DNA from: an uncultured virus (IMG/VR IMGVR_UViG_3300025305_000013)
Lineage: Duplodnaviria; Heunggongvirae; Uroviricota; Caudoviricetes
Direction: 5' to 3' (one strand)
IMG/VR virus record: IMGVR_UViG_3300025305_000013
DNA: 64,000 nt
Shown: positions 1-42,399 of the stretch, one piece after another
How positions within the stretch are numbered: position 1 is the stretch's first letter
How the letters are laid out: each line of letters begins with the position of its first letter
Translations under genes and position numbers: made by a program
Notes under the pieces: generated by a model
Told to the model about the DNA's origin: nothing
The model's input: the letters and a program-made list of their open reading frames with translations, nothing else
The model's database searches: none

Positions 1-6
1 GACTTT

Positions 7-35
7 AGTATACCTTAGTTTAACCCTTAGGTAAA
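7..35 (-). promoter_or_regulatory. sigma70-like early promoter firing leftwards out of the window
   Basis: Minus strand TTTACC (35-30), 17-nt spacer, TATACT (12-7); AT-rich UP-like tract upstream. Confidence 0.7.
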
Positions 36-50
36 GGTTTATTTTAAGTA

Positions 51-118
51 CGCGCCGCCGCCCGCGCCGCCCGGTTTTACGCCGCCCGCGTTTTACGCCG
101 CCGCCCGCGGGCGTAAAA
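51..118. repeat. GC-rich direct/inverted repeat block between divergent promoters
   Basis: Repeated GCCGCCCGCG and TTTTACGCC units ending in inverted GGGCGTAAAA. Confidence 0.7.
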
Positions 119-133
119 TAAAGTTAAAAACCC

Positions 134-162
134 TTTACTTAACGGCTAAGTTAAAGTATACT
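134..162 (+). promoter_or_regulatory. sigma70-like early promoter
   Basis: TTTACT(134-139)-N17-TATACT(157-162), A-tracts upstream, in front of ORF 249. Confidence 0.8.
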
Positions 163-248
163 AGGGTTAGTTAGGTTAATAACTTACTACCTAACTAAAT
201 AAAACTAAATAAACGTAAGTAACTAAAGTTAGTATAGGTATTAATACT

Positions 249-473
249 ATGGAAACTAAAAGTAAGGCTAAAGCCGTAAAAGTTAATTACGGCGGGCTTA
301 ACCCTAAAGCGGTTTATACCGCTACCGGTAAAATAGCCCGGGCTACCCATAACGCGGAGCGGCATACCGCGTTAAACGGTAAAACGGTAAAAGCGGCGCT
401 AGCTACCCGGTTAGTTAACGCCCAGGACATAAAGTACGACTTAGCTAAAGGCTTTATTACTTTGGAGGGGTAA
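249..473 (+). CDS. small basic early protein, DIKYD-family paralog 1 (putative DNA-binding)
   Basis: 74 aa with promoter and terminator; shares ARAxHNxERH...DIKYDLAKGFI with 1155 and 6550 ORFs. Confidence 0.85.
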   Translation: METKSKAKAVKVNYGGLNPKAVYTATGKIARATHNAERHTALNGKTVKAALATRLVNAQDIKYDLAKGFITLEG

Positions 474-483
474 TAGCCTAACG

Positions 484-511
484 GCCCGGGCTTAACCGCC
501 CGGGCTTTTTT
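484..511 (+). terminator. rho-independent terminator
   Basis: GCCCGGGC-ttaacc-GCCCGGGC followed by T6. Confidence 0.85.
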
Positions 512-532
512 ACGCCTAAATTTCGTGTTGAG

Positions 533-715
533 AAGCCGCCGCTAAAGCGGCGTAGCCCGCGGGCTACGCCTAGTTTTATTTAATTACGGTGGCACGGCTT
601 ACCCCCTTAGTAAACTATAAGCTACCTATTTAAGCTAGCTAGTAGGTAGGTAATACTTAACCTTAATTTATATATTAGGGTATTAGGTTTTTATTACCTA
701 CCTAACTAACTAACT
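533..715 (-). ncRNA. candidate early non-coding transcript
   Basis: Downstream of minus-strand promoter 750-722; 13-bp stem TAGGTAGGTAATA/TATTACCTACCTA; GC hairpins at 533-570; only a 3-codon ORF. Confidence 0.35.
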
Positions 716-721
716 AAACTA

Positions 722-750
722 AGTATACGGTAACTAGTACTAAAAGTAAA
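722..750 (-). promoter_or_regulatory. sigma70-like early promoter
   Basis: Minus strand TTTACT(750-745)-N17-TATACT(727-722), A-tracts upstream. Confidence 0.75.
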
Positions 751-851
751 GGTTTATTTTAACTTATTTTACCGCTACGTTGCGATCACATTGCGATGGC
801 ACTATAAGCCTACCAAAATCGCACGAGGTCCTGCGAAGTCTTATATACAAG

Positions 852-917
852 TAAGAGGGAACGTGGTTACAGATAAGAGGGAACGTGGTTACAGATAAGA
901 GGGGACATGGTTACAGA
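852..917 (+). repeat. 22-bp tandem repeat x3
   Basis: TAAGAGGGAACGTGGTTACAGA x2 plus one variant copy. Confidence 0.9.
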
Positions 918-1018
918 CACGACGTATCACCGAGGTATCCGCGAAGTTTCACCGAAGCATCCGCGAAGTTTCACCGAAGCATCCGTGAGGTATCACCGAG
1001 GCGTCCGCGAAGTTTCAC
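917..1018 (+). repeat. second 22-bp tandem repeat, about 4.5 copies
   Basis: CCGCGAAGTTTCACCGAAGCAT at 939 and 961, variants at 917, 983, 1005. Confidence 0.9.
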
Positions 1019-1080
1019 TATACTAGCTACCCAGTGAAATGATCTTGCGATCATACTGCTAAAATAAAATAAACTAATGC

Positions 1081-1109
1081 TTTACTTTTATACTAGGGTT
1101 TAGTATAAT
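1081..1109 (+). promoter_or_regulatory. sigma70-like early promoter
   Basis: TTTACT(1081-1086)-N17-TATAAT(1104-1109); UP-like AAAATAAAATAAA upstream. Confidence 0.85.
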
Positions 1110-1154
1110 GTCTATAATTAGGTAATAAAGCCTAATTAATATCGGAGAACGGTA

Positions 1155-1394
1155 ATGTCACAAAGTAAAAAAACAACTAGTAAGGTAAAAGTGTCAGAAG
1201 TAAAAATTAATTTAGGCGGGCTAAACCCCGATCAAATTATTCTGGCAACGGGTAAGTTAGCGCGGGCCCAACATAATGTCGAACGTCACACGGCGTTAAA
1301 CGGCATGTCAGTGCGAGAAGCGTTAGCTAGTCGCATGGTTAACGCCCAAGACATTAAGTATGACTTGGCACGCGCGTTTATTATTCTGGAATAG
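1155..1394 (+). CDS. small basic early protein, DIKYD-family paralog 2
   Basis: 79 aa, GGAG RBS; co-linear with ORF 249 (GGLNP..ATGK.ARA.HN.ERHTALNG..V..ALA.R.VNAQDIKYDLA). Confidence 0.85.
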   Translation: MSQSKKTTSKVKVSEVKINLGGLNPDQIILATGKLARAQHNVERHTALNGMSVREALASRMVNAQDIKYDLARAFIILE

Positions 1395-1405: not shown

Positions 1406-1439
1406 GGGCCGGGTGGCACTAGCCGCCCGGCCTTTTTTT
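1406..1439 (+). terminator. rho-independent terminator
   Basis: GGCCGGGTGGC-acta-GCCGCCCGGCC then T7. Confidence 0.85.
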
Positions 1440-1449
1440 ACGCCCGTAA

Positions 1450-1940
1450 GTTGCGATCGCAACGATGATCCCATTAGACCTCCGGCCACAGTCCACGAAC
1501 CCTACTCCGTGGACCATGAACCAGAGGAAACCTGTTTACAGAGGTTTTTCTATGAATCATGAGCAAGAGATGATCACATTGTGATCACACTGGGATTACA
1601 AGGATGATGGCAGTGCGATCAAAGTCCATGGACCATGGTTTACATCACAATGGGAGAAGATAGAGGGACCATGGTTACCATGGTTCATGATTCATGGCTC
1701 AAGATCACAATGCCATCCCCCCTATTACAATAAATACAACTAATAGGATTTGGGGCATAAATCATGGTTCATGGCTTGTGGCCGGGGGGTTTTTTAACCG
1801 AGGTCCGTGGCCGGATCAAAAGTTAGTTCTATATATACGTCCTCAATTTCTAGAAGTCATATACTAAAACTCGCTTACATGCTTTATCACAGCTATCGGA
1901 GATGACCATCCCCGTACCATGAACCACAGTCCATGGTCAC
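1450..1940. other. non-coding CATG/GATC-dense block
   Basis: About 13 CATG and 7 GATC counted by eye; no ORF; lies between converging transcription units. Confidence 0.65.
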
Positions 1941-2106
1941 TATTACCTGCCAAAAGCCAATAGGTCGCTAATAGGTCAGCCAATAACCCACAAATAGCGA
2001 CCAACCACACGGACTCCAGACAAAAAGCTATTACCTTATTGGCAAAAAAGAAATTTTTTGTGAAAACAAAACTCTATTTTTCGCTCCACTACTAATAGAA
2101 GCAGCG

Positions 2107-3081: not shown

Positions 3082-3145
3082 TCCCCACTATTTATTTACC
3101 GTACCCCTATATAATAAGGTAGAAGTTAGTCCTTCCCTAGGACAA
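3082..3145 (-). promoter_or_regulatory. repeated phage-specific promoter/leader, copy 2
   Basis: Near-identical to 2544-2604. Confidence 0.75.
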
Positions 3146-3155
3146 CTCCTATTAT

Positions 3156-3575
3156 TCATTTAGCGACCCTCACAAACTGCGTATCAGCAGAAGCAAAGCT
3201 ACTGCCATGTAGACTAATGGCATAGTAAGTATAGTCTTCGGTTGACGTAGTTGTTATGATGTTATATCCACCAGACTTATGGTAAAAATCAAGAGGAGTA
3301 CGGTAAACTCTCTTCCATTTATCATAAGTAAATTCAGGTATATCTTCAGGCTCGCCATGCTCGTGAAATCCTATTTCACTAAAGTAATAACCGTATTCTC
3401 CAGGAATAAATAGTTTAAGCATATCGTGAATAATTTGCTGTTCCTTATTATATAGGGAGTAATCTTCCTCCTCTACCCACATTTCTTCCATGAATAAACC
3501 TTCTTTGGCATCGCTGGGTATTATCTCCCATCCGTCGACAATAATTCCATAGGTACTTACTAATTTATTAGTCAT
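3156..3575 (-). CDS. hypothetical protein, paralog of 2107..2535
   Basis: Shared GY.FSE and Y.Y.A.SL.G...ASA.T....V blocks. Confidence 0.7.
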   Translation of the reverse strand: MTNKLVSTYGIIVDGWEIIPSDAKEGLFMEEMWVEEEDYSLYNKEQQIIHDMLKLFIPGEYGYYFSEIGFHEHGEPEDIPEFTYDKWKRVYRTPLDFYHKSGGYNIITTTSTEDYTYYAISLHGSSFASADTQFVRVAK

Positions 3576-3818: not shown

Positions 3819-3834
3819 TGTTACACCCCTTAAT

Positions 3835-3893
3835 TCCCCACTATTTACCTTACCTATATATTATAAGTAAGAATAAATTCCTTCCCTAGGACA
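3835..3893 (-). promoter_or_regulatory. repeated phage-specific promoter, copy 3
   Basis: TGTCCTAGGGAAGGA...TTACTTATAATATATAGGTAAGGTAAATAGTGGGGA. Confidence 0.7.
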
Positions 3894-3897
3894 TATG

Positions 3898-4101
3898 TTA
3901 GTATTCTATATAGTCATACTGAAAGACTTTGCGTAGTCGTGGAAGAAAGCGAGGAGAGAGCTCATTTGAGTCCAACATATCTCGCACATCGTCGTATGAC
4001 ATATATTTAAGAGCACAGCACAGCACATGATGACTGGTCACTGTCCCCTCCTCGACCAGTTGTAGTGCATACTCACGTGGATATTCTTCAAAGTTTACCA
4101 T
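3898..4101 (-). CDS. hypothetical phage protein
   Basis: 67 aa, GGAGA RBS; LKYMS.DDVRDMLD.NEL motif common in small phage proteins. Confidence 0.7.
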   Translation of the reverse strand: MVNFEEYPREYALQLVEEGTVTSHHVLCCALKYMSYDDVRDMLDSNELSPRFLPRLRKVFQYDYIEY

Positions 4102-4563: not shown

Positions 4564-4589
4564 TTCTCCCCCTACCTTGCTAACTTTAA

Positions 4590-4628
4590 CGTACCCTAAT
4601 AATAAGGTAGAAGGCGGTCCTTCCCTAG
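4590..4628 (-). promoter_or_regulatory. repeated phage-specific promoter, copy 4
   Basis: CTAGGGAAGGACCGCCTTCTACCTTATTATTAGGGTACG. Confidence 0.7.
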
Positions 4629-6483: not shown

Positions 6484-6546
6484 AAAAAAGAGGAGTGCAA
6501 TCATCACTGACCACAGGAGTGCAATCATCACTGACCACACCCCCCA
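6484..6546 (-). terminator. terminator carrying an exact 24-bp tandem duplication
   Basis: AGGAGTGCAATCATCACTGACCAC x2 (6491-6538); G:U-rich stem then T6 after gene 6550. Confidence 0.55.
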
Positions 6547-6549
6547 AAA

Positions 6550-6885
6550 TTATGACGTTAAAGTCATAAAGCCCTTCGCGAGATCGTAGCGAATATCGCG
6601 AGCATCCACCCTACGGGAAGCCAGCGCATCTCTCACGGTTAGCCCATCCATGTCTTCATGCCGCTCTTGGTTATGGGTTGCTCGAGCTATTTTATCTGCA
6701 TTATTCTTTAAAATAGCGTCAAGATCCAAACCCCGAGCACTTACGACTTTCTCGGCTGCTTCTTTAGCAATTTTTGCCAAAGGGCGTTTAGCCGAAGGAG
6801 CCTGTTTTGCGGATTCCTTTTTGCTAACAGTGCTCTTAGCCTTTTTAGAGGAGCCTATACTCCTCACTTTATTTGCTTTTGCCAT
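6550..6885 (-). CDS. DIKYD-family paralog 3 with Lys/Ala-rich N-terminal tail
   Basis: KIARATHNQERH..DGLTVRDALASRRV...DIRYDLAKGFM; AAAGGAGA RBS. Confidence 0.85.
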   Translation of the reverse strand: MAKANKVRSIGSSKKAKSTVSKKESAKQAPSAKRPLAKIAKEAAEKVVSARGLDLDAILKNNADKIARATHNQERHEDMDGLTVRDALASRRVDARDIRYDLAKGFMTLTS

Positions 6886-7695: not shown

Positions 7696-7917
7696 TTACT
7701 CCTCAATCAAAACATCCTCTAATATTCCTTGTTTATTCAGCCTGATTGTATGAGCCAACTTAGGTTCGTATATATCGTCAAATACTTTTCTGGCTTCTTC
7801 TTTGGAGTAGGGTTCTTCTCCGAATGCTTGTTTTTCTTTGGAATTTAACTCATACCATACAAGAAAATTTATTTTGTAGGTGTGGTTATTATTGTATTTG
7901 AATTCAATGTTCTTCAT
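7696..7917 (-). CDS. hypothetical protein
   Basis: 73 aa, GAGGGAG RBS, overlaps TerS end. Confidence 0.65.
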   Translation of the reverse strand: MKNIEFKYNNNHTYKINFLVWYELNSKEKQAFGEEPYSKEEARKVFDDIYEPKLAHTIRLNKQGILEDVLIEE

Positions 7918-8383
7918 ATTCTCCCTCTATAATTTTTCCTGCAGGTAGGATACCTCCTGTTTCGTAGTAAAGTTCCTTCATCCTTGTGAGAACTTCATCC
8001 TTGGACATAGTGTCAACACGGTTCACGGTCAATTCACTACGATTCACATAGAGTCCTGCAGCTTTTCCACGTGCAACTTCTGCACTTACCGCCGCCGACC
8101 AAGCCCCATTACGCACAGCCCCATCTCGTATGTCTTTTAGGTCTACTAGATGAGTGCCTAGAGTGAGGTTTACTTTATCGGCGGCACGAGTTTGTAATTC
8201 TTGAATACGATTCTGTACGTTTGGGTTAGTTTTGCCAGTGAGAACGGTTCCAGCACGCGCAGCATTTTTCTTACTGTACCCGGCAGCTTTTGCTGCATCT
8301 ACTTTTCTCATACCTTTGGCTACATTCTGAGCAAACTTTTCTTGCTTGGGGGTGAGTTTTTTCTTACTCACGCCTTCCTCCAA
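7904..8383 (-). CDS. terS: terminase small subunit-like HTH protein
   Basis: LTPKQEKFAQ...AAKAAGYSKKNA...NPNVQNRIQEL N-terminal HTH typical of TerS. Confidence 0.75.
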   Translation of the reverse strand: MEEGVSKKKLTPKQEKFAQNVAKGMRKVDAAKAAGYSKKNAARAGTVLTGKTNPNVQNRIQELQTRAADKVNLTLGTHLVDLKDIRDGAVRNGAWSAAVSAEVARGKAAGLYVNRSELTVNRVDTMSKDEVLTRMKELYYETGGILPAGKIIEGEYEEH

Positions 8384-8613
8384 ACTCGAAGTTTCCAGTC
8401 TCCGTTTTCTTCTATTATCTTACGAGTGACAAATTTCTTGTTATTCCTTTTAGCGTAGTTACTAACCGCAACTCTTATACGCTGTATACCTGTAGAGTCC
8501 CATTCTTCTACAGTAAAACACTGACCAACTTCCATTAAATGTAAGTTGTATTTATTATTGCGAGGAACAGAAGGGGGAATAGGATACCCTTCTTCAATTG
8601 AAGATACTTTCAT
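8368..8613 (-). CDS. small phage DNA-binding-like protein, paralog A
   Basis: IEEGYPIP...KY....MEVGQCF...LRVWR. Confidence 0.75.
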   Translation of the reverse strand: MKVSSIEEGYPIPPSVPRNNKYNLHLMEVGQCFTVEEWDSTGIQRIRVAVSNYAKRNNKKFVTRKIIEENGDWKLRVWRKA

Positions 8614-8630
8614 TACTTTAACTCCTGGAT

Positions 8631-8879
8631 TTAAACATTCTCATCAGAAACCCACACTCTAATACCCCCTTCTCCTTGGCGACCTTCTTGTCTTTGAAGG
8701 GACTTTTTCCCGAGGTGACGCGTAATACAATTACGCAAAGCTGCGGCGTCATGTTTATTAGCCGTCAAAACAGAATCCCCCACCTCCATAGAGAGGACCA
8801 CCTCTGCAAACTTTGACCAAAACGCTCTTTTTCCTTTCTTGGGTATGGGGATATGTTTGTCCACTTTTAATTGAGCCAT
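8631..8879 (-). CDS. small phage DNA-binding-like protein, paralog B
   Basis: VDKHIPIP...MEVGDSV...IRVW; same family as 8368. Confidence 0.75.
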   Translation of the reverse strand: MAQLKVDKHIPIPKKGKRAFWSKFAEVVLSMEVGDSVLTANKHDAAALRNCITRHLGKKSLQRQEGRQGEGGIRVWVSDENV

Positions 8880-9752: not shown

Positions 9753-10301
9753 TTAGCCCACAATTTTAGCATACCCTTGACGTATATCGTATTTAATATC
9801 TGCCATTGAAATCTGGGGGTCTTGGCAGATTGTAGAGACTGATAGATTTCCAGTGTAGAATTTTCGCAATCTATTAAGATTCTTTTTCGATCTAGGTTGC
9901 TTTCCTGTGTAGCCTATCTTTTCAGTTCCATTGAGATGCATTTTATTTCGTGGCTTGGATACTTTTTGTGGCTTGGATACTTTTACAGAAGGTTCACCAA
10001 GGCTATATGAAGAATAATCCTTACGAGTAGGTTTTACTGCCTTTTTTCTAAAGTACTCCCAAAAAATCGATCTAGCTTCTTCTTTGGTTTTAAATTCTTT
10101 TGTTTTACCTGTATGTAACTTCCAAATTTCCGTAGCCTTTTTAAGAGAAAGCCAATGAGGACAGGCATACTCTTTTGGATTTCCCATGTGGGCAGACCCG
10201 CCCTTTAGATCCTTAATTTCAAATTCTGAAGTAATTACTATTCTTCTCCAGTCTATGCCGTCAGGAGTATTGTTCACAAAAGTAATAAACTCGTAACTCA
10301 T
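9753..10301 (-). CDS. basic protein with C-terminal DIKYD-like domain (paralog 4)
   Basis: C-terminus ..TGK..R..ADIKYDIRQGYAKI; AAAGGAGA RBS. Confidence 0.7.
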   Translation of the reverse strand: MSYEFITFVNNTPDGIDWRRIVITSEFEIKDLKGGSAHMGNPKEYACPHWLSLKKATEIWKLHTGKTKEFKTKEEARSIFWEYFRKKAVKPTRKDYSSYSLGEPSVKVSKPQKVSKPRNKMHLNGTEKIGYTGKQPRSKKNLNRLRKFYTGNLSVSTICQDPQISMADIKYDIRQGYAKIVG

Positions 10302-14080: not shown

Positions 14081-14761
14081 TTAAATTTCTGCTTCTCGGC
14101 ACATATTTTGTTTGCCAAAATAACACCATTTACATTTAAACTTAGACGGGTTAGCCGGAAATTCTTCTGCAGTAGTCATCGCTATTGCTCTAAGATTAAT
14201 TCTTTCTTGTCTAGCTTTAATACTTTCCGGGGTGTAGATATAACGGTCTATCTTACCGTGGTCTAAGTACCACATCTCTGTAGTAATCTGTTCTAATTCT
14301 GGGTAGCGTTTAAGAGCAATAGCTCCATAAAGCTCGCATTGTTCTCTATGTACTTCTTGATTACCGTCGTACCTACCTGTCTTAAAATCTATGACGCGGG
14401 CTTCCTTACTTACGCCTTCTTCATATACAAAGGCATCTACTTTAGCTCTCCCCCATGTATCATCTTCAAACCAACCTGTTTTCTCCCAATCTTTAGTGAT
14501 AGCCCAATCACTTTCGCATATTACATGACCGTGTAGATACATTTCTTTTAATAGGATAAAAGCGTCTTCAAAATCCTGTAATTGTGCAGGGATTTCTTCT
14601 ATTTGACCCCGTATAAATTCTTCGCAAAGTTTGTGGATATTTTTGCCTCTGTCCATTGCTGGGCTAGGAGGCTCTTTTATTTTCTTAATAAATTTAAATT
14701 CAGCCTGTTTAGGACATTTTTCAAAACAACTTAATCTACTGTACGACCATTGTTTAATCAT
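14081..14761 (-). CDS. PD-(D/E)xK exonuclease (RecB/Cas4-like)
   Basis: WSYSRL..FEKCP, G..IH, KVD, IDFKTG, Q..LY, C-terminal CKWC..C. Confidence 0.85.
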   Translation of the reverse strand: MIKQWSYSRLSCFEKCPKQAEFKFIKKIKEPPSPAMDRGKNIHKLCEEFIRGQIEEIPAQLQDFEDAFILLKEMYLHGHVICESDWAITKDWEKTGWFEDDTWGRAKVDAFVYEEGVSKEARVIDFKTGRYDGNQEVHREQCELYGAIALKRYPELEQITTEMWYLDHGKIDRYIYTPESIKARQERINLRAIAMTTAEEFPANPSKFKCKWCYFGKQNMCREAEI

Positions 14762-14771
14762 AAATATTTCC

Positions 14772-15782
14772 TTAGTTAGATTTTCTACCCAACCATTCCC
14801 AACAAGCCTTACGCCAATCATCTGCTTTACATTCTTGTATTTCAATCATTGCTTCTTCAATCTGCCCTGATTTATATAACCACCAAGAATTTTGTATCGG
14901 TGCGGCAACGTGTGTAAAGAAAGGGTCTTCATATATAGTATGGTCAAATGGTTTTCTATCGAAGAATCCCAATAGATCCAAGTCCCATATTTGTATATCT
15001 GTATTGACTATAGGGTACGGTTTTACCATTTCTGCTGTATAGGGGTTTAAAGCAAGAAATCTTTTTTGTGTAAAAAAGTCCATTGCGTCTTGTTCTATAA
15101 ATTTATTAAGCAATGGTTCAAACACCACATTATAAGCATGATAGTTATCGCTGATTTGATAATACTTACCCACAGATACACCAATAGCCGTAGCCATATA
15201 TTCCTGTAGCATAGACATATGCACTACGTTTGCTCCGTAAGCCCCCCAAATTATGTCATTGGATCTATTACAAACAGTCATTTGTAATTTTCCCTCTAGG
15301 TCTATCTTGAAATAGACACAAGTATTACAAGGGACATCAGCACCGTCTCTATCTAAATCTTCAACAGGATCCCACATTTGTAATACAGATCTTCTATCTT
15401 CTGGATTCTCTTTTAGTCTTTTAATTATGATTGGTATTTGATCACGAAAAAACCAAGACCGCCATCTCCAACCATAAGCACCGTGCAAGGTTTGGCCGTC
15501 ATCGCTGAATTCTTTCATTCTTTTGTTATATTGATAAACAAATTCGAGGTCATACCCTCCCTTTATCATCCACAAGGCTTCCATAAAATGAAAGAACGGG
15601 TTTGCGTTACGCTCTTTCCAAAATAAAACCCTCTCTTTCGGCTTACTGTAGACGGTAGTTACCGGCGTAGGAGCCTGAAAAACTACTCCATTTCGGCTCT
15701 CTGCTTTTACTCCATTTGTATATAAAAAATCAAGACCCCGTAAAAGAGCATCATGTGCGTTCCTTACATTAAGAACTTTCAT
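14772..15782 (-). CDS. thymidylate synthase-like protein, probable dUMP hydroxymethylase
   Basis: SRNG, NPFFHFMEALW, GAYG.RWR, DRR, catalytic PC, RSNDIIWGAYGAN (Asn specificity residue indicates dUMP), NYHAY. Confidence 0.85.
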   Translation of the reverse strand: MKVLNVRNAHDALLRGLDFLYTNGVKAESRNGVVFQAPTPVTTVYSKPKERVLFWKERNANPFFHFMEALWMIKGGYDLEFVYQYNKRMKEFSDDGQTLHGAYGWRWRSWFFRDQIPIIIKRLKENPEDRRSVLQMWDPVEDLDRDGADVPCNTCVYFKIDLEGKLQMTVCNRSNDIIWGAYGANVVHMSMLQEYMATAIGVSVGKYYQISDNYHAYNVVFEPLLNKFIEQDAMDFFTQKRFLALNPYTAEMVKPYPIVNTDIQIWDLDLLGFFDRKPFDHTIYEDPFFTHVAAPIQNSWWLYKSGQIEEAMIEIQECKADDWRKACWEWLGRKSN

Positions 15783-16551
15783 TTATTCCGTCCTTATATG
15801 CTTTTTTCCAACTAATTCTCACATCTTTACGGGGTAAACCGCCCCAAGCAGTTTTAGTTTGTTTTTCCACAAGTTTAACATGATCAGGGTGAAGGTCGTG
15901 TAGTCTTTGCGCCCCTTCATTGTGGACGTCAATTGTGCGCCACTCACTACAGCCTCCTTCTGCGTTTGATGATTTTTGCCCTTGAGCGTAGTAATAGCTT
16001 ACCTTATTTGCTTTACCTTCTCTTAATAGTTGTAGGGCAATGTCAAAGTCTTCCATTACTCTAGTTCTTCCCCACTCCACACTATCAGGGAATACTTCTA
16101 GGTTATATCCCAACACACGCATATACCGAGTATTTTCTACCGATAAGTTTTTTACATGGTTGTTACCTTCTCTTGCGCTTATACCAACATGAGCATAACC
16201 CTGATCCATCCACTCATCTAGCAAGCCGAATAGAGCAGGATATTCGCTCGATTGAAGATATCGAAGGTGCCAATCAATAGGACTTTTACGAATATAGAAC
16301 CGTAAGTCATCATCCAACATAACTATACGAGGGTCTTCTACATTTTCTACTATATATTTACGTTTTGGACCAATACCTATGCAATCACTAGGTACAACCA
16401 TTCTAGGTGTGTCTGGGTAGTTGTGGTATTTATCTTTTTCATCTTCATCTATTACTAATACAACTGATCCGTCTCTCTGCATTTCTTTAGGAAACCACCT
16501 TAAAGTTTCCTGATTATAGGGTCTTCCCCTTGTGGGAATATATATTTTCAT
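15769..16551 (-). CDS. GT-A fold DNA glycosyltransferase-like protein (TET/JBP-associated GT type)
   Basis: IYIPTRGR, IG.KR..I, MLDDD, EDFD..LQLL..G, SNAEGGCS motifs; within modification cassette. Confidence 0.8.
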   Translation of the reverse strand: MKIYIPTRGRPYNQETLRWFPKEMQRDGSVVLVIDEDEKDKYHNYPDTPRMVVPSDCIGIGPKRKYIVENVEDPRIVMLDDDLRFYIRKSPIDWHLRYLQSSEYPALFGLLDEWMDQGYAHVGISAREGNNHVKNLSVENTRYMRVLGYNLEVFPDSVEWGRTRVMEDFDIALQLLREGKANKVSYYYAQGQKSSNAEGGCSEWRTIDVHNEGAQRLHDLHPDHVKLVEKQTKTAWGGLPRKDVRISWKKAYKDGINESS

Positions 16552-16563
16552 ACTTTCTCCAGT

Positions 16564-16740
16564 CTAATCATATGTGGCGGTCCAATTCTTAAAGATTTGT
16601 CTAGCTTCAACACGCGATAAACCGTACTCTTCCTCAAGCCATCGTGGGGCACCAAACATATTCATTGCACCGCTTTCCCTTATGGCTTCGAGAACTATAT
16701 TGTATTTATCCTGATCTTCTTTTGTTATTTCTACTGACAT
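16564..16740 (-). CDS. small phage protein (58 aa, not in ORF track)
   Basis: MSVEITKEDQDKYNIVLEAIRESGAMNMFGAPRWLEEEYGLSRVEARQIFKNW; LxxIRESGxxNMFGA motif; GAGG RBS. Confidence 0.7.
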   Translation of the reverse strand: MSVEITKEDQDKYNIVLEAIRESGAMNMFGAPRWLEEEYGLSRVEARQIFKNWTATYD

Positions 16741-16742
16741 TT

Positions 16743-17051
16743 TTACTTTTCCTCTCTAGTATTACTCCAACGTGTACCGGTGTAAGATTCTACAAGCAAT
16801 AAATATCTTCTTAAGTCTCTGATATCATCTAAAATTCCAGAATCAGATTGATCTATGTCTATAGCCTGAAAAATATCATAGCCGGTATCCTTGACTTGCT
16901 TTTCTATTCTGTCCCACTTACGTGCTAGCATCATCATAGCCCCTACCCCGCCTCGCATTCGCCAACTGTCCCCGTAACTTTTTTCTGCCTCTCTTAGTTT
17001 AGTTACGTCTCCGTCTGCCAATTCCTGAATATGGGTAAAGTCTGCCGGCAT
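16743..17051 (-). CDS. nucleotide modification associated domain protein (Nmad1/DUF1599-like)
   Basis: K.YGDSW..RGGVGA.MMLARKWDRI, DI.DLRRYLLLV. Confidence 0.7.
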   Translation of the reverse strand: MPADFTHIQELADGDVTKLREAEKSYGDSWRMRGGVGAMMMLARKWDRIEKQVKDTGYDIFQAIDIDQSDSGILDDIRDLRRYLLLVESYTGTRWSNTREEK

Positions 17052-17900
17052 TTATTTTTCCCCTGCATATTTATATTTTGATCTAGGTCTGCCTTCCCCT
17101 AAACGAACTCTTTCGTACTTATCAAATTCACAAAGACAATGCTCTATTTCTCTCATCTCCAGTTCTTTATCGAGAAGGAATAGAATATTCTGGTTAAAGT
17201 TAGTGAGTAAACTTTTCATTTCTTGGGTAAGTTGATCTTCTTTAATAGCTTGCTTAAGAGATCTACCGTGTATTCTATTTAACCCTCGTTTTGCTCCTGG
17301 ACCAGCGTTAGCCCAAGTCATAATGTCTTCAGCATTTTCTAGGTGTCGGGTGTGACGTAAATCGGTAACGACTTCATAGGACATAAACCCGCTGAAACCA
17401 GCATAGGGGAGATAATTTTTCCAAGTTTCTTTAAGGGAGTGCGGTATTATTTCAGGAGGGTTATGATACACAGGGGTGAGAATTTTATCTACAGTTTGTT
17501 GTACTTTAGTCCCTCCTAAAGTACCGGTTAACATATACGCTCCTGTGTAAACTTTTTCTCCTCTGTCCATTCTAGCTTGCATAATTTCTTTAGTTCTTTC
17601 AGGGTTCCAGTAATAAGGGAAGCCTATTTCTTCTAGGGTATCTGGCCAATTTATTTGGCGAGCCATGGACATGGCAAAAGGCAAATTTGGATGATCGGCG
17701 TAGGGTTCCCTCCAATTTTTTCGTATCCAAATAGTGACCTTGTCTAACTCCCTGAATACATTACAGAAACTGTAGGTTTGAAGTATCTTATCCTCAGTCC
17801 ATGGAAAAGGTTCTCCCTCCTGACGTTTTAGATAAATCCTATGTCTTTCGTTTATATAGCGAAAGAAACGATGCTCCGCTGCTTCTATGTCTGAAGTCAT
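17052..17900 (-). CDS. 5-hmdU DNA kinase-like protein (aGPT-Pplase1 helical family)
   Basis: ERHRIY.KR..G.P.PWT.D.IL..Y.FCNVFRE.D, YTGAY, GFMSYEVVTD, GPGA.RGL, IEH.LCEFDKY.R. Confidence 0.85.
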   Translation of the reverse strand: MTSDIEAAEHRFFRYINERHRIYLKRQEGEPFPWTEDKILQTYSFCNVFRELDKVTIWIRKNWREPYADHPNLPFAMSMARQINWPDTLEEIGFPYYWNPERTKEIMQARMDRGEKVYTGAYMLTGTLGGTKVQQTVDKILTPVYHNPPEIIPHSLKETWKNYLPYAGFSGFMSYEVVTDLRHTRHLENAEDIMTWANAGPGAKRGLNRIHGRSLKQAIKEDQLTQEMKSLLTNFNQNILFLLDKELEMREIEHCLCEFDKYERVRLGEGRPRSKYKYAGEK

Positions 17901-25056: not shown

Positions 25057-26210
25057 GTTGGTAGGATGCCGACAAGACCACCTAGATTTCTTCTTGTTCT
25101 TGCAGCACTCGCTGCAGGCATTGATTGTCTACCTAATGCCCCTCGAAGTTCTTCAATTTGTTGTTGTAAATTAGTTGGGTCAAATCCTGGAATTTTTCTA
25201 TTCTCTAGAGCACCCAACCTCGCTTGAAGATCACTCGGATCAAACCCTGGAATTTTTCTATTCTCTAGAGCACCTAGCCGCCTTTGAAGACCACTCGGAT
25301 CAAACGTAGGAATTTCTCTATTCTCTAGAGCACCTAGCCGCCCTTGAAGATCACTCGGATCAAACCCTGGAATTTTTCTATTCTCTAGAGCACCTAGCCG
25401 CCTTTGAAGAGCACTCGGGTCAAATCCACCTCTATTCTCTAGAGCACCTAGCCGCCCTTGAAGACCACTCGGATCAAATCCACCTCTATTCTCTAGAGCA
25501 CCTAACCGCCTTTGAAGACCACTCGGATCAAATCCTGGAATTTCTCTATTCTCTAGAGCATCTAACCTCGCTTGAAGACCACTCGGATCAAATGCAGGAG
25601 GAGCTACTGTCTCCTCTCCGGCTTCTAATAAAGAAGGAGGAGCCCATCTAAGGGGAATTCCCTCTATCCCAAAACCGCCGGCAGCCGGTGGTCCGGGTCC
25701 AAGATCATCCTTAAAAATGAAGTGTTTCTCCTGATCTAAAAGCGAGTCAATATAATCCCTATCTCCAGAGATTGAGTCAATAAAGTCTCTATCAGAGAAA
25801 TCATTATGTTCTGATATATAAGCAGATTCAGGTAGACCATGTGCCTGGGCTACTACCGTATAATCATTTAGCGTTTCTTGACGTGGAGTCGTCGATGCTG
25901 GATATACTGGATATGAAGGTGGACGTGGGTTAGCCCCGACGCCACCGCCACCACCGTCGTCTGAAGGTGGAGATAAGAACCTTCGGTAAGTCTCCCTTTG
26001 CATCTCCATTAATTTTTCTCTATCGGCTTGCCCACCGGGGTCTGTTCTTGGGGGATTAACTAAAGAAGCTATCCCCGGAGCACGGTCATACATCCTTGCT
26101 AAATGATCTCCCAGAGGACTAGGGCTAGGTCTAGGGGGTCTTTTATTTGGGGGGACTTGAATTGGTCGCGGTGGCGGCAGCGAAGGATTTCTTCCAGTAT
26201 ATAAAGCCAT
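25053..26210 (-). CDS. Pro-rich virion-associated protein with tandem coiled-coil repeats
   Basis: Seven FDPSGLQxRLGALENR(KIPG/GG) repeats plus one partial; last gene of late operon. Confidence 0.7.
   Translation of the reverse strand: MALYTGRNPSLPPPRPIQVPPNKRPPRPSPSPLGDHLARMYDRAPGIASLVNPPRTDPGGQADREKLMEMQRETYRRFLSPPSDDGGGGGVGANPRPPSYPVYPASTTPRQETLNDYTVVAQAHGLPESAYISEHNDFSDRDFIDSISGDRDYIDSLLDQEKHFIFKDDLGPGPPAAGGFGIEGIPLRWAPPSLLEAGEETVAPPAFDPSGLQARLDALENREIPGFDPSGLQRRLGALENRGGFDPSGLQGRLGALENRGGFDPSALQRRLGALENRKIPGFDPSDLQGRLGALENREIPTFDPSGLQRRLGALENRKIPGFDPSDLQARLGALENRKIPGFDPTNLQQQIEELRGALGRQSMPAASAARTRRNLGGLVGILPT
25176..25592. repeat. coding tandem repeat of 54- and 60-bp units
   Basis: TTCTCTAGAGCACC recurs at 60-nt then 54-nt spacing. 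Confidence 0.9.
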
Positions 26211-37693: not shown

Positions 37694-38172
37694 TATTCTT
37701 CCTTATTATCAGAATGTGAGGCACCAAAGTAAAAAGAAATGATTGCACTCGCCAACCCTCCGAGATACCCTAAAACTAGATTTATTAGAGCCTCTGAGTT
37801 TTGTTCAGGCGGCTGTAGAGTCACCAAAAAGATATACCCCATAAAACCGCCAACCGTAAACAAACCGATAAGTCTGGCGGTCCAATCTTTACTAAACTTG
37901 CTTCTAGCATCCTGAATATCCAGTGTTTCAAGCTTGAAAATATCAACGTCTAGTTCCTTCATCTGGAGTTCAAAAGTTTTCTCGGCCTTCTTTAATTCTA
38001 ACAACTGCTCCGGGGTTGCCTGCTGTACTGCATTATCAATAGCCTTTGGATTATCTTCACATCCCAAAACATCGCATATAACCTTACTGGCCATACCGCC
38101 TAATGGGCCACCTAGAGCAGTTCCTAAACTCGGAGCTACTGCCCCAACTATACTTTTTAATAGATTTTTCAT
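37693..38172 (-). CDS. holin-like membrane protein
   Basis: VAP.LGTALGGPLGG N-terminus, two C-terminal TM segments, ISFYFG.S; adjacent to lysozyme. Confidence 0.65.
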   Translation of the reverse strand: MKNLLKSIVGAVAPSLGTALGGPLGGMASKVICDVLGCEDNPKAIDNAVQQATPEQLLELKKAEKTFELQMKELDVDIFKLETLDIQDARSKFSKDWTARLIGLFTVGGFMGYIFLVTLQPPEQNSEALINLVLGYLGGLASAIISFYFGASHSDNKEE

Positions 38173-39947
38173 CGTTCCTCCACTGTATAGATTTCCAGAG
38201 ACTTTTCTTTACCTTTTACTTTTATAGGCTCTAACAATTTTAGCTTAAAACTACAATAGTTTTTAGTATCTTTTCCTATAAGTATATCTTCTCCAACTTC
38301 TTTTGTTGCAGATTCTAGCCTTGCAGCTATGTTTACTGCATCTCCAATGGCGGTATAGTCAAATCTCATTTCACTTCCCATATTCCCGATAACCGCTTCT
38401 CCAGTATTGATTCCGATACCAATAGCCACTGGCGGTAATTTTCTTTGGGCGAGTTCTATATTTAGCTCCGACATATTTTTTAGAATATCTAGTGAACACT
38501 CAATAGCGACATGTGCGTGCTTATCTAAGTCTAATGGTGCATTAAAAATTGCCATCATTGCATCACCGATATACTTATCGACCATGCCGCCGTGTTTTTG
38601 CACAGCCTTTTGCTGCGCAGTCAAGGCTCTATTCATTATATATGTAACTTGCGCCGGGTCTAAAGACTCGGACATAGAGGTAAACCCTCTTACATCAGTG
38701 AATAGGTAAGTAGCAAGTCGCTTTTCGCCTCCGAGCTTTAGTAGCTCTGGGTTCTTCTGTAACTTTTTAACCTGCCTTGGATCAAGGTAGTGTTCAAATT
38801 GCTTTTTGATTTCCTGTCGTAGCTTATACTGTTCACGAAATCTCAGGTAGAAGGCGGCAGATGCAATAATGAATTCAGATATCAGAGCCCATGTTACATC
38901 TACCAGTAAACCCCTCTGAATTAAGGCAAGTCCTAAATATCCTACCCCTGTAAACAATAGACCGGTTAATGTTATTCCTAGCGTTATCCCTAAAGAATTG
39001 ATCAAAACAACTGTCAAGATTGTGCCGGCAAAAAATATCAATACTTCTGCCGCCAACGCCCAATTCGGTATATAGGGGCTATTTTCTATCAAAATGCTTT
39101 CTGCTAAAGCCGCCTGTATTTTGTGCGGTTCAAGCAGCTTGTTGTTTGGTACTGCAATTTGAGGCATTATGCCCCTTGCCGTAAACCCTACAAAAACAAA
39201 CTTATCTGCAACATCCATTTCGTATAAGTTTGTTTCTGGAGTATCTACATAACTAATCCATCTTCTACCCAATGAGTCTACAGATACCGGAGGAAGCCCC
39301 CGGACCCTGACTTCTTCTATTCCATTTTCACTTGTCCTTATAACGTAAGTATCTGCACCTGCTAGTATTTTTAGAACCTCAGTTCCATAAGCAGGAACCC
39401 ATCCATCTGGAGTTCTCATCAATAGAGGAAGTCTTCTGACTAAATTATCTATATCAGTTCTAGCAACCGCTATCCCCTGACTGGAGCTTTCTTTCAGCGG
39501 GTCTATATTCTGTATGACGCCACTTGCCAGAATACCGCCAATATCTTCCCCTAAAATAACGGTGCCTGTTGTTTCGGGGTAGCTTCCGTTATCGTTCTCA
39601 AACATTGCGAGAACACTTGGCGACCCAGATAAAGCACTAGCAAATTCTGTATCTCCTCCAAACCTATCAGGTTGTGGAAAAGCTAGAACCCACCCTACGC
39701 CTATAGCTCCCTTCTCTAATAGCTCATTATGTATCTCTGCGAGTCTTTGCCGGCCAAAAGGATACCCCCCCTCTCTTTCTATATCTTCCTCATTAATAGA
39801 AAGTATTGAGAAATATCCAGAAGCTTGTTTTTCAGAAACTAGGGAATCAAAAGTCTTTAGTTTCAGTGTCTCTATAAAACTCAGGTTCCATACAAATGGA
39901 ATACTTAATAATATAAGCAACCCACCAAGCTGAATATATCTAGTCAC
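38169..39947 (-). CDS. CHASE2-domain class III adenylate cyclase
   Basis: N-terminal TM, CHASE2-like region, 3 TM, FTDVRGFT, DKYIGDAMMA, GIGINTG, DYTAIGDAVNIAARLE. Confidence 0.92.
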   Translation of the reverse strand: MTRYIQLGGLLILLSIPFVWNLSFIETLKLKTFDSLVSEKQASGYFSILSINEEDIEREGGYPFGRQRLAEIHNELLEKGAIGVGWVLAFPQPDRFGGDTEFASALSGSPSVLAMFENDNGSYPETTGTVILGEDIGGILASGVIQNIDPLKESSSQGIAVARTDIDNLVRRLPLLMRTPDGWVPAYGTEVLKILAGADTYVIRTSENGIEEVRVRGLPPVSVDSLGRRWISYVDTPETNLYEMDVADKFVFVGFTARGIMPQIAVPNNKLLEPHKIQAALAESILIENSPYIPNWALAAEVLIFFAGTILTVVLINSLGITLGITLTGLLFTGVGYLGLALIQRGLLVDVTWALISEFIIASAAFYLRFREQYKLRQEIKKQFEHYLDPRQVKKLQKNPELLKLGGEKRLATYLFTDVRGFTSMSESLDPAQVTYIMNRALTAQQKAVQKHGGMVDKYIGDAMMAIFNAPLDLDKHAHVAIECSLDILKNMSELNIELAQRKLPPVAIGIGINTGEAVIGNMGSEMRFDYTAIGDAVNIAARLESATKEVGEDILIGKDTKNYCSFKLKLLEPIKVKGKEKSLEIYTVEER

Positions 39948-40671
39948 TCTGAGATATTGTGACTGTTTTATTACAATTAGTGACGCAGTTGTAACTTACT
40001 GTAATACTTTTATTGGTAATTCCGGATTGACTAGCAGTCACATCGTAGTCATCCGTATAGAAATTCAGCCTCATATAATGGTCGCCACTCCCAGTTTGCG
40101 TTATAGAAGCATCATTGTTATCCGCATAGCCGCTTGCATAGATTTTGGCGTAATGCTCCCCGCTACCTGACTGATCTATACTAAAATCAGAATAATTGCC
40201 AAAAGCCCTTATCTCGGCTTCCTTGTCATCACCATCTTGAGAAATACTATAAACATTCCCATCTCCCTGCATATAGATTTCTCCGTCATTATTGTCACCG
40301 TTTTGCACAACATCCATATCATTTAAATCATCATCGGCATCAATGTATCCAAAATTATCATTGCCTGTTTGTTCTATTTTGTATTCGTTTCCTGTATGTA
40401 AAGTTACTTGACTATACGCTCTTGCAATATTACTTGTACCATTTTGATCTATATCAATTTCTGCATTATTACAATTATGCGTTGTATAGTTTCCTTCAGA
40501 CAATCCGCACCAAACTCTTGCCGTATTAGACGTCCCTATCTGGTCTATATGTATTAATGACGAACTACCCTTGGTCCGCACTTCTACGGAATTGTCTGAT
40601 GCATATATCAACTGAGAAATCAGTAAAAAACTAATCAGACTGATTGATGATGATCTCACTGTCTCCTCCAC
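39940..40671 (-). CDS. curlin-like repeat protein (CsgA/CsgB type)
   Basis: Signal peptide plus repeats IxQxGxxNxA (DQIGTSN, DQNGTSN, EQTGNDN, QNGDNN). Confidence 0.75.
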   Translation of the reverse strand: MEETVRSSSISLISFLLISQLIYASDNSVEVRTKGSSSLIHIDQIGTSNTARVWCGLSEGNYTTHNCNNAEIDIDQNGTSNIARAYSQVTLHTGNEYKIEQTGNDNFGYIDADDDLNDMDVVQNGDNNDGEIYMQGDGNVYSISQDGDDKEAEIRAFGNYSDFSIDQSGSGEHYAKIYASGYADNNDASITQTGSGDHYMRLNFYTDDYDVTASQSGITNKSITVSYNCVTNCNKTVTISQSD

Positions 40672-41734
40672 CGTTAATCACAATATTTAACTGCTTTCCT
40701 GCAGAAAGTATTTGCAGGTTATAGGCATTATTCTTGTCTAACTCCAGATCAATAGTGTTTTCAACCTGCCGGAAAAACGCAAGGATCTCTCCTTCTACAA
40801 AGCTGTACATCTGTGCATCTTGGTCGAATCCCGGAATAATTCCCTCTATCTGAACTCCATCCAGTTCGCCTTCTTCAGCTTGATCTTTTTTCCCTGCGGA
40901 AATTTCCTCCATCATTTCAAGCAAGTCTTGTAAAAAATCTACAGATAAAAAGTCGACATCTAACCGCGTTATTTCATCTTGTAGCTCGTCTTCCGAAAGT
41001 CCGTCATCGTCGTCGAGGTCGTTTTCCTCAAGAAAGTCTACATCTAGCACGTTACTTGCACTTTGGCCTTGCTCATCAATAGCTTGTTGAACTTCTTCTG
41101 GAGGACTTACGATAAGAAGATTATCTATAAAGGCTAATGACATGTTAGTTAATTGCACGGCTTGTGTTGGTGGGCTTTCGGCAACGCTTACCATTGTTGC
41201 CTGATATGGCTGGTTTAGTACCTCGACGCCTGCCATAGTTTCAACTGTAATTTCTCCAGATGAATTTCCAGCAGCGTCTGGCAGAAGGATTACCAAGGAG
41301 CGTCCTAGCTCATCAACTGTGGTCGTAAAATCAGTGCCTCTAATAAATATTGAGGCACTTGGGGTAGAGATAGAGACACGGGATTTATTGATCTTGCCCA
41401 AAGCCCCGGTAATAAATCTCGCTGTCCCTGAAGCCATGTTAAGAGCGAGCTTGCCTTTATCGGGGTCAGGGTCATAGATATATTCATCAATAACAATTTT
41501 AGAATGCTCAGTAAGCCGAATAATGCTAGAGTCTAGGAACTCTATGCCGATTCGCCCGTTCCCTGTGCGCACATCGTCATAGCTCAAGATACCGAGCTCA
41601 GCTTCTGCCGGCAAACTAGCCTGCTGATTCTCCCGTAAAACCTCTCCATTGCCCCTTAATTCAGAGATTCTGCCTATCTGCGAATACGCAGAATTACAAA
41701 AAAATACCAAACAAATCAACAGCCAGAGGTGCAT
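40631..41734 (-). CDS. FecR-domain protein
   Basis: Signal peptide, D.VRTG.G...I.F.D.S...L.E.S, TP.A.I.IRGTDF. Confidence 0.85.
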   Translation of the reverse strand: MHLWLLICLVFFCNSAYSQIGRISELRGNGEVLRENQQASLPAEAELGILSYDDVRTGNGRIGIEFLDSSIIRLTEHSKIVIDEYIYDPDPDKGKLALNMASGTARFITGALGKINKSRVSISTPSASIFIRGTDFTTTVDELGRSLVILLPDAAGNSSGEITVETMAGVEVLNQPYQATMVSVAESPPTQAVQLTNMSLAFIDNLLIVSPPEEVQQAIDEQGQSASNVLDVDFLEENDLDDDDGLSEDELQDEITRLDVDFLSVDFLQDLLEMMEEISAGKKDQAEEGELDGVQIEGIIPGFDQDAQMYSFVEGEILAFFRQVENTIDLELDKNNAYNLQILSAGKQLNIVINGGGDSEIIINQSD

Positions 41735-42399
41735 TGGTCTATATCAATAGTGGCGTTACTCGTAGTCGATGTTATGACCACTACTCCAGAAACGCTACCT
41801 GTACTATTCGTTTGATCTATATCGATATTGTTCGTATTTCCAGTTATTGAGGCTGTAATTTCGTGATCGGCATTTCCGGTCTGGGTTGTATCGATATCAT
41901 TTGAATCGCCATCAACCGTCCAATTATTAATACATCCAACCACTTCACAAGTAGCATTAATATTATTTGATGTTCCGGTAATGGTTATATCCTGATTTCC
42001 CGCAGTCGCCGTTGCTGCTGCCCCCTGAGTAAAAACAACTACGTTGGAGTCTCCAGTTTCGGTCAAGTCGAAATCTGTATTAGCAACATCGCCTGTCGCC
42101 CCAAGCGCAAGAGTAGTAGCATTGCTATCGCCAGTGCTTGTTACAGTAAACGAGGTGCTATTTCCCTGAGCTATCGATGCTGCCAGCGTATTTGAGTCGC
42201 CCACTTGATCTACATCTACAGTCATGCTTGTGCCAGTAAACGTCGCTCTCGTTTGAGATGTACCTACAACATTGCTATCGCCTATCTGGTCGATTGTTAG
42301 CGTTAGCCCGGTCCCTGACTGAGTTATGTATATGTCGTTGTTTGCTCCAAACACTATCGGAGAAACGAAAATCAATAAGATCTTTAGAAGATTTTTCAT
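41716..42399 (-). CDS. curlin-like repeat protein
   Basis: Signal peptide, NDIYITQSG, repeated DQ.GDSN / TG.SN beta-solenoid units. Confidence 0.75.
   Translation of the reverse strand: MKNLLKILLIFVSPIVFGANNDIYITQSGTGLTLTIDQIGDSNVVGTSQTRATFTGTSMTVDVDQVGDSNTLAASIAQGNSTSFTVTSTGDSNATTLALGATGDVANTDFDLTETGDSNVVVFTQGAAATATAGNQDITITGTSNNINATCEVVGCINNWTVDGDSNDIDTTQTGNADHEITASITGNTNNIDIDQTNSTGSVSGVVVITSTTSNATIDIDQCTSGC

Follow-up and report, generated by a model that had tools for sequence, protein, structure and literature searches.

A conserved 7-bp-period array at the early/late junction of HTVC023P-type phages

In phage T7, the SRL and SRR elements are heptamer arrays that abut the 160-bp exact terminal repeat. 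Phages of the HTVC023P type are described as being among the most abundant pelagiphage groups (PMC9599517). For the hypermodifying clades V, VIII and IX, the gene descriptions of Wittmers et al. 2022 list a thymidylate synthase, aGPT-PPlase1 (the kinase) and a glucosyltransferase near PolA (PMC9599517). These descriptions concern genes only, and the main text of that source contains neither 'promoter' nor 'terminal repeat'. For the phages M6, ViI and phiW-14, the relevant passages of PMC6449724 infer TG and TC to be the modified context. Within the literature examined, the genome-end biology of HTVC023P-type phages is uncharted. Our searches, which mostly lay outside subscription journals, returned nothing on purged promoters in hypermodified phages, and PMC10484667 holds no passage on promoters or depletion. 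Here we describe a real and conserved array of 7-bp units, of a kind for which the same searches found no description.

The window analyzed here is a 64-kb stretch of DNA from an uncultured virus, a marine phage. Its capsid protein is 67-74% identical to those of DSL-LC04, psg01, HTVC023P and HTVC027P, and its capsid and PolA are closest to those of HTVC023P, HTVC027P and psg01. Because of this capsid identity, the phage is assigned by sequence to the HTVC023P-type podoviruses, in a predicted hypermodifying clade. Pfam and PHROGs scans located the modification genes near PolA:

14772..17900, minus strand: putative thymidine-modification cluster (PF00303, PF18723, PF20691)
14772-15782, minus strand: thymidylate-synthase-like gene
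15769-16551, minus strand: predicted TAGT glycosyltransferase
17052-17900, minus strand: predicted 5-hmdU DNA kinase helical domain

The kinase is 43% identical to YuA gp14. Among five related records, it was found in four and TAGT in all five, while AADT had no match in a Pfam scan of 75 proteins. Between PolA and the thymidylate-synthase homologue lies an unannotated leftward ORF (14119-14771, starting MIKQWSYSRL), putatively nuclease-like.

A non-coding block enriched in CATG

The features at the left end of the window are listed below. Throughout, TS denotes the steps TG, TC, CA and GA.

1..780, no strand: end region purged of TG, TC, CA and GA, with cassette 1; TS-free runs of 249 and 188 nt
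134-162, 249-473 and 483-512: promoter, 74-aa gene and terminator of cassette 1
722..750, minus strand: TS-free promoter TTTACT-17-TATACT, facing cassette 1
781..1054, no strand: spacer between divergent promoters, with TGCGATCA elements at both edges
1081..1394, plus strand: cassette 2, with promoter TTTACT-17-TATAAT (1081-1109) and a 79-aa gene (1155-1394)
1406..1440, plus strand: intrinsic terminator of cassette 2, directly before the array
1450..1790, no strand: variable array with a 7-bp period, composed of TGYGATCRCA dyads and of GRWCCAY heptads in either orientation
1450..1463, no strand: perfect 14-bp palindrome GTTGCGATCGCAAC, left edge of the array
1580..1589, no strand: perfect palindrome TGTGATCACA, inside an 11-bp tandem at 1571-1600
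1624..1699, no strand: stretch in which direct and inverted heptads overlap at their greatest density (GTCCATGGACCATGG ... ACCATGGTTACCATGGTTCATGATTCATGG)
1791..2066, no strand: conserved non-coding core, iteron-like, a candidate for an origin or a high-affinity site; relatives are about 71% identical, and 17 lineages were aligned
7904..8383, minus strand: terminase small subunit (TerS), candidate binder

An earlier note on this DNA had reported about 13 CATG and 7 GATC sites at 1450-1940. Our recount gave exactly these numbers, out of 184 CATG and 183 GATC in the whole window. From the rest of the window, 1.33 CATG and 1.36 GATC were expected (Poisson 2e-9 and 5e-4, respectively). In 5000 shuffles of the block that preserved its dinucleotides, 13 CATG were never reached and 7 GATC were reached 177 times. 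CATG is far above chance and survives the shuffles; GATC by itself is borderline. The sum of both words is 20 in the block and at most 9 in all other 491-nt stretches, and the other intergenic gaps of the window show no comparable enrichment. GATC alone is higher elsewhere (9 at 25216); a 60-bp coding repeat in 7 copies (25180-25593) marks the local GATC maximum of the window. TGCGATC occurs on the plus strand at 781, 1046, 1452 and 1614 and nowhere else in the window, precisely as had been listed.

The block had also been described as free of ORFs. Three short ORFs (48-57 aa) do overlap it, and their counterparts in 16 other lineages are short or interrupted by stops, which makes the block effectively non-coding and rules out hidden ORFs as its explanation. 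A structured non-coding RNA was likewise rejected: the block folds at z -5.0 and -5.6, but the strong fold is peculiar to this lineage, with only one of nine lineages reaching z of about -3 or lower against 4-mer shuffles. All six matches in an Rfam scan of the block fell under the gathering score. A blastn search of positions 1-2100 against 50,697 phage records returned no match.

The neighborhood of the block is purged of TS steps, as had been claimed for its promoters. Positions 1-780 are nearly TS-free (TG odds ratio 0.11, TC odds ratio 0.09), and the purge is graded, with cassette 2 containing 18 TS per 100 nt. The purge of 1-780 is best read as keeping first-read DNA unmodified. Positions 1081-1440 constitute a second copy of the cassette, and direct repeats of GATCGCAAC lie on both sides of this cassette 2, as though it had been inserted or inverted at this place. 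The spacer at 781-1054 contains 22-bp and 11-bp tandem repeats (852-917 and 920-1018). No ORF of at least 40 aa starts just downstream of the promoter at 722-750. The promoter form TTTACT-17-TATACT (134-162, 722-750, 1081-1109; about 29058 in L101) is common to the repeated YuA promoter element. The array directly follows the last terminator that points inward. Leftward genes begin at 2107, and beyond the array every gene of at least 70 aa up to 23 kb points back to the end. Within this early region, TS-free leftward promoter or leader elements recur every 500-750 bp (2543-2615, 3082-3156, 3830-3906 and 4585-4628).

The block itself contains 146 TS steps, compared to a mean of 114.6. As the stretch at 46058 also reaches 146, the block is not saturated with modification targets. 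It is nevertheless probably heavily modified, since TG and TC are the target context of homologous kinases and the neighbors are TS-purged.

Seven-base-pair periodicity across 17 lineages

The array at 1450-1790 contains 10 of the 13 CATG and 6 of the 7 GATC sites of the block. Positions 1472-1821 form the most 7-periodic stretch of the 64 kb (lags 7, 14 and 21; z 3.7, with the runner-up at 3.2). Elements of the GTTGCGATCGCAAC type also lie directly upstream of the promoters at 781 and 1046.

Relatives were collected with a pattern derived from the core, which occurred in 27 viral stretches and at least 118 metagenome stretches. Of these 145 anchored loci, 94 were long enough for clustering and resolved into 17 lineages. 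Each lineage has a non-coding block of 208-507 nt between the core and the first small-gene cassette, with cassette number and orientation varying. Across the 17 blocks, base identity at lags 7, 14 and 21 was 0.357, 0.349 and 0.320, whereas most other lags gave about 0.245 and flanking coding DNA gave 0.27 at lag 7. In 15 of the 17 lineages, lag 7 ranked within the top three. GRWCCAY was observed 88 times against 6.6 expected and was present in every lineage; GATCRCA was observed 38 times against 0.4 expected and was present in nine. Tandem heptad pairs numbered 22, distributed over 12 of the 17 blocks, with none in 28,748 nt of flanks. The variable part was unalignable between lineages (just two matches, of 19-24 nt, among the 16 others), which indicates that the words of the array are kept rather than its sequence.

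Word counts revealed which property of the tetramers is preferred. Pooled over nine lineages, CATG occurred 60 times (11.6 expected) and GATC 64 times (12.7 expected). In the same lineages, CATC/GATG (29 observed, 31.1 expected) and TGA/TCA (137 against 142) were unenriched, and CATC/GATG was depleted relative to di- and trinucleotide shuffles (49-61 expected). Over all 17 lineages (5,972 nt), CATG and GATC each numbered 88 and CATC/GATG 45. As CATC/GATG has the same two-strand thymine geometry yet is depleted, it is dyad symmetry that is selected, not two-strand modification density. The earlier suggestion of a hypermodified island holds to the extent that a predicted 5-hmdU pathway is present and the neighbors are purged; a block that exists to maximize two-strand modification is not supported.

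The palindromic tetramers arise because inverted units overlap. Inverted heptads overlapping on AT would give GGACCATGGTCC, with CATG as a by-product, and paired inverted GATCRCA half-sites would give TGYGATCRCA, with GATC as a by-product. Across the 17 lineages, 60 of the 88 CATG sites lie within CCATG or CATGG. Of the 16 perfect palindromes of at least 10 bp in nine lineages, 15 are AT-centered (1.6-1.8 expected). TS steps were 1.30 times background when the nine lineages were pooled, and above background in each.

Adjoining the array, positions 1791-2066 are the best-conserved non-coding stretch of the end region. The core contains phased GCCAATA/TATTGGC repeats at 1956, 1967 and 1979, with an inverted copy at 2037, together with AARCATG, TATATAG and an A/T tract. 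Across the 17 lineages, the near-invariant repeats are spaced 8, 12 and 11 bp, followed by TATATAG.

Convergent transcription had been noted at the block, and this is indeed the arrangement here, with the plus-strand gene at 1155-1394, a terminator at 1406-1433 and leftward genes from 2107. Elsewhere it is not constant. Among the 15 lineages with a gene match, the first cassette is convergent in eight and co-directional in seven, and a co-directional promoter follows the block in these seven. All 10 multi-cassette lineages share one arrangement, in which the cassette most distant from the core is directed inward and is the poorest in TS; this most purged cassette is also the one nearest the late-side C-motif. 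TS-rich spacers alternate with TS-free cassettes, and the spacers between cassettes contain 43 GATC and 12 CATG in 2,726 nt. Between the cassettes and the late genes of the relatives stand a C-rich motif and an A-tract (AAAATTTTTGCAAAA-like).

Kinase-less relatives and the possible role of the array

The kinase was found in none of HTVC023P, HTVC027P, psg01 and DSL-LC04, while YuA was positive. In the 30-45 kb loci of these four kinase-less controls there was no TS-free run longer than 45 nt, no block comparable in CATG and GATC, and no GCCAATA cluster. Two of them carry lag-7 arrays at the same early/late junction, built of GCTTG-NN in HTVC027P and of CCACGG-type words in DSL-LC04 (4-mer recurrence at lag 7 of 26 and 21, respectively). 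Such arrays are not confined to modifiers. The psg01 array has period 4, not 7, and HTVC023P has a single heptad pair (GGACCAC-GAACCAC), which lies in the non-coding gap before terS together with repeated CTAGGAAAA and TATATA. Just downstream of terS in HTVC023P (L055, 12470-12570) are three 33-bp repeats with the family-wide pre-terL A-tract motif. A four-fold GCTTG-NN pattern was found in at least 173 stretches of viral contigs, with several loci per contig, and 68 of the 79 loci tested lie beside the terminase small subunit. In HTVC027P (L056), GCTTG-NN arrays occupy 16470-16640, 17390-17440 and 17720-17740, the first inside annotated gp32, which is possibly spurious. A CA-N-G-S core, defined after looking at the sequences, is shared across clades.

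The array core here contains 32 TS per 100 nt, compared to 25 and 19 in the two kinase-less arrays. GATC clusters likewise occur at this junction in kinase-less relatives, in non-coding DNA of HTVC027P and of G015, which is kinase-negative and 99% complete. Neither a purge nor a CATG block was found in YuA or in the distant kinase-positive records L145 and L178. The spacers of these two records are TS-rich with other words (TGAT/TGAC; GATGA) and surround unrelated small-gene cassettes lacking a TS purge (4550-5600 in L145, 7170-7470 in L178). Several relatives are nearly or wholly devoid of CATG: psg01 has none in 34 kb, and in five of 80 TerL loci the density does not exceed 0.2 CATG per kb. 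Avoidance is complete or nearly so in psg01 (L057), L109, L118, L130, L133 and L147, while L112 and L171 contain little CATG and little GATC. These CATG-free relatives suggest CATG restriction in the host pool, and modification may have freed the present clade to use CATG by shielding it from host restriction.

Contig depth hints, though weakly, that a fixed end with variable redundancy lies near position 1. In X12, contig depth is 64 over 1-881 and declines through 51, 45, 43 and 40 to 25 over the first 3-4 kb; in X5 it falls from 53 to 20 over the same distance (in both cases contig means from possible source samples, and not copy numbers). The contigs of X12 and X5 end 17 and 5 nt before position 1. 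In the shallower X15 and X16, contigs run beyond position 1 and depth does not fall. The over-represented edge is position 1, about 1.5 kb from the array, which argues that the array is not the cut site. Contig ends in the 145 anchored and 80 TerL loci formed no clear cluster at one site, and a few stop at C-runs. Contig starts at 6530 in three assemblies, considered as a terminal-repeat edge, are explained by a 24-bp tandem allele; this duplication (6491-6539) is polymorphic between samples and breaks assemblies.

We tentatively favor, at somewhat short of even confidence, an array that serves as a cooperative protein-binding platform for genome-end handling, either in terminase loading and packaging or in entry hand-over. 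A phage DNA-binding protein would load cooperatively on degenerate 7-bp repeats, at about three units per two helical turns. Array and adjoining core would jointly act as the control region where early and late genes meet, close to the physical end of the genome, and its most likely job would be terminase loading and terminal-redundancy processing at packaging. Alternatively, it might mediate hand-over after host RNA polymerase has transcribed the first, TS-free cassettes to enter. Thymidine hypermodification would probably mark the array sites and, by shielding CATG, render CATG-centered dyads usable. A packaging signal and an injection stop, two of the roles that the earlier note had offered for the block, are both live.

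A degenerate array in both orientations that holds its junction and its period although the word differs from clade to clade is what a cooperative binding platform looks like; the omega/parS heptads provide the worked example (PMC9499535). End handling is consistent with the GCTTG arrays beside terS and with the inward-pointing, most TS-poor far cassette of all 10 multi-cassette lineages. The fall in depth over the first 3-4 kb weakly hints at a nearby fixed end. Against it, the X15 and X16 contigs pass position 1 with no such fall, psg01 has period 4 and HTVC023P one heptad pair, and slipped-strand expansion can yield short-period repeats devoid of function. Similar spacers between cassettes and directly upstream of promoters would suit promoter control equally. 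The binder is a candidate: a TerS relative was found in eight of 11 loci (fragments included) but not in those of psg01 and YuA. Paralogues at 8368-8879 were rejected as a universal binder, with one match in 11 loci.

The alternative to be taken most seriously, if an unlikely one, is a replication origin. The core would be the origin and the heptads an accessory part that loads or positions the primase-helicase. Near-invariant phased inverted GCCAATA repeats with AT-rich TATATAG across 17 lineages, in non-coding DNA that is better conserved than any other of the end region, fit this reading, as does the HTVC023P gap before terS with its repeats, TATATA and heptad pair. Arrays found elsewhere than at the core, some separating cassettes and some adjoining promoters, do not, and depth peaks at position 1 rather than at the core; the GCCAATA cluster was also missing from the kinase-less controls. 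Rather improbable, in our estimate, is a modification-gated switch, in which TerS or an entry factor would read symmetric pairs of hypermodified thymines in the CATG and GATC dyads; packaging would then be limited to matured DNA, or entry would pause just behind the first, unmodified cassettes. It fits two observations: palindromic two-strand TS words are preferred to non-palindromic ones, and arrays of kinase-positive clades are richer in TS. If true, it would be a thymine-based counterpart of Dam-gated P1 pac, an ancestral 7-bp array turned epigenetic signal. A little less probable still are operator arrays that would regulate the strong early promoters, with the small basic cassette protein of 74-111 aa as candidate, autoregulatory binder. 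The omega protein binds heptads over promoters and supplies the analogy. TGYGATCRCA lies just upstream of the -35 box at 781 and 1046 and in co-directional lineages, and the HTVC027P arrays abut TTGACA boxes. The 74-aa protein is basic, with a predicted beta-three-helix-beta, winged-helix-like model (pLDDT 84.5), and its domain is fused to T5orf172 in P0078. However, its best fold match, to VIA, is weak (Z 5.1, rmsd 2.8, 60 aligned), Foldseek gave no match at E<=0.001, and tblastn found none in the 30-45 kb loci of the four controls, two of which have lag-7 arrays. The main block, moreover, faces a terminator and not a promoter in eight of 15 lineages. The small cassette protein belongs to no Pfam or PHROGs family, and its Atlas clusters are unnamed or absent. 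Four paralogues of this basic domain, which carries the motif DIKYDLxKGF and no family name, lie at 249-473, 1155-1394, 6550-6885 and 9753-10301; distant forms include the T5orf172 fusion and repeats in longer proteins (P0073, P0076, P0077).

Quite improbable is the idea of a deliberately hypermodified island that would block RNA polymerase or a nuclease between the purged cassettes and the rest of the genome. TG and TC are the modification context given in the relevant part of PMC6449724, TS density exceeds background in each of nine lineages, the array core here is denser in TS than the kinase-less arrays, and TS-rich spacers alternate with TS-free cassettes, with L145 and L178 spacers TS-rich as well. 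Yet CATC/GATG is depleted, TGA/TCA is unenriched and the TS density is matched at 46058. A base-J-like transcription barrier at a convergence point, a role first proposed, is not supported either: intrinsic terminators are already there, convergence is not conserved (seven of 15 lineages are co-directional), kinase-less relatives have arrays, and YuA has neither purge nor block. Largely neutral filler seems very improbable to us: the spacers would have lengthened through slippage in 7-bp steps and through local inverted duplications as cassettes were shuffled, and CATG would be tolerated because modification removes restriction pressure. Blocks that are unalignable, differ in length and accompany cassettes of varying number and orientation are what it would leave, and strong self-complementarity is found in this lineage only. 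It accounts poorly for one period and heptad persisting through 17 diverged lineages, for period 7 recurring with different words in other clades, and for other gaps of the window that show no enrichment. A decoy for host GATC or CATG restriction or methylation enzymes is scarcely credible. The purge of CATG from several kinase-less or untested relatives makes CATG cutters in the host pool probable, but neither the 7-bp period nor the extended dyads would be required of a decoy, and the 171 CATG and 176 GATC of the window outside 1450-1940 would serve equally. The methylase decoy formerly suggested also finds no partner among the genes: neither the Dam family (PF02086) nor PF01555 (N6/N4) was detected in any of five records.

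A clade-specific 7-bp array at a fixed junction is a defined cis-element, testable in the cultured HTVC027P. It is also a marker of protein-DNA co-evolution, in which the word changes between clades and the period is constant. The sharp alternation of TS-free cassettes and TS-rich array makes thymine hypermodification testable as a signal, and not only as armor.

Comparison with described systems

T7 SRL and SRR, which abut an exact terminal repeat, resemble the present array as degenerate 7-bp arrays near a podovirus genome end.

Like clades V, VIII and IX, as far as their gene descriptions go, the phage carries the same modification genes and a curli operon with FecR and a cyclase (PMC9599517). 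The operon (38169-43687) comprises CsgF, CsgG, two curlin-repeat genes, FecR and a CHASE2 adenylate cyclase. With the TS-specific hypermodifiers M6, ViI and phiW-14, as portrayed in the relevant passages of PMC6449724 and PMC8989533, it shares a homologous kinase, and here exactly TG and TC are purged beside the block. It differs in having a glycosyltransferase where those phages have an amino acid transferase, and YuA has neither a purged island nor a CATG/GATC block.

The parS sites of pSM19035 (omega/ParB) are, in the account given by PMC9499535, likewise 7-bp units in direct and inverted orientation that overlap promoters, and GATCACW resembles their WATCACW. However, WATCACW is unenriched here (2 observed, 2.5 expected), the arrays are degenerate and gapped, and neither ParA nor RHH ParB was found among the 75 proteins scanned. 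P1 pac, in the pertinent passages of PMC6449724, offers clustered GATC in non-coding DNA near a presumed packaging region, where modification could gate cleavage. The mark is Dam adenine methylation in P1, whereas here it is a candidate thymine mark, with no Dam-family gene found and the presumed cut about 1.5 kb away.

The injection stop signal region of T5 is also a repeat- and palindrome-rich non-coding region that follows the first-expressed genes (bioRxiv 10.1101/866236). DnaA boxes, which the T5 region contains, are not among the top enriched words of the array in nine lineages. The T5 repeats are long, conserved in order and about 9 kb in, within a siphovirus (bioRxiv 10.1101/866236), whereas the array here is degenerate, 7-bp periodic and set about 1.5 kb in from the presumed genome end of a podovirus.
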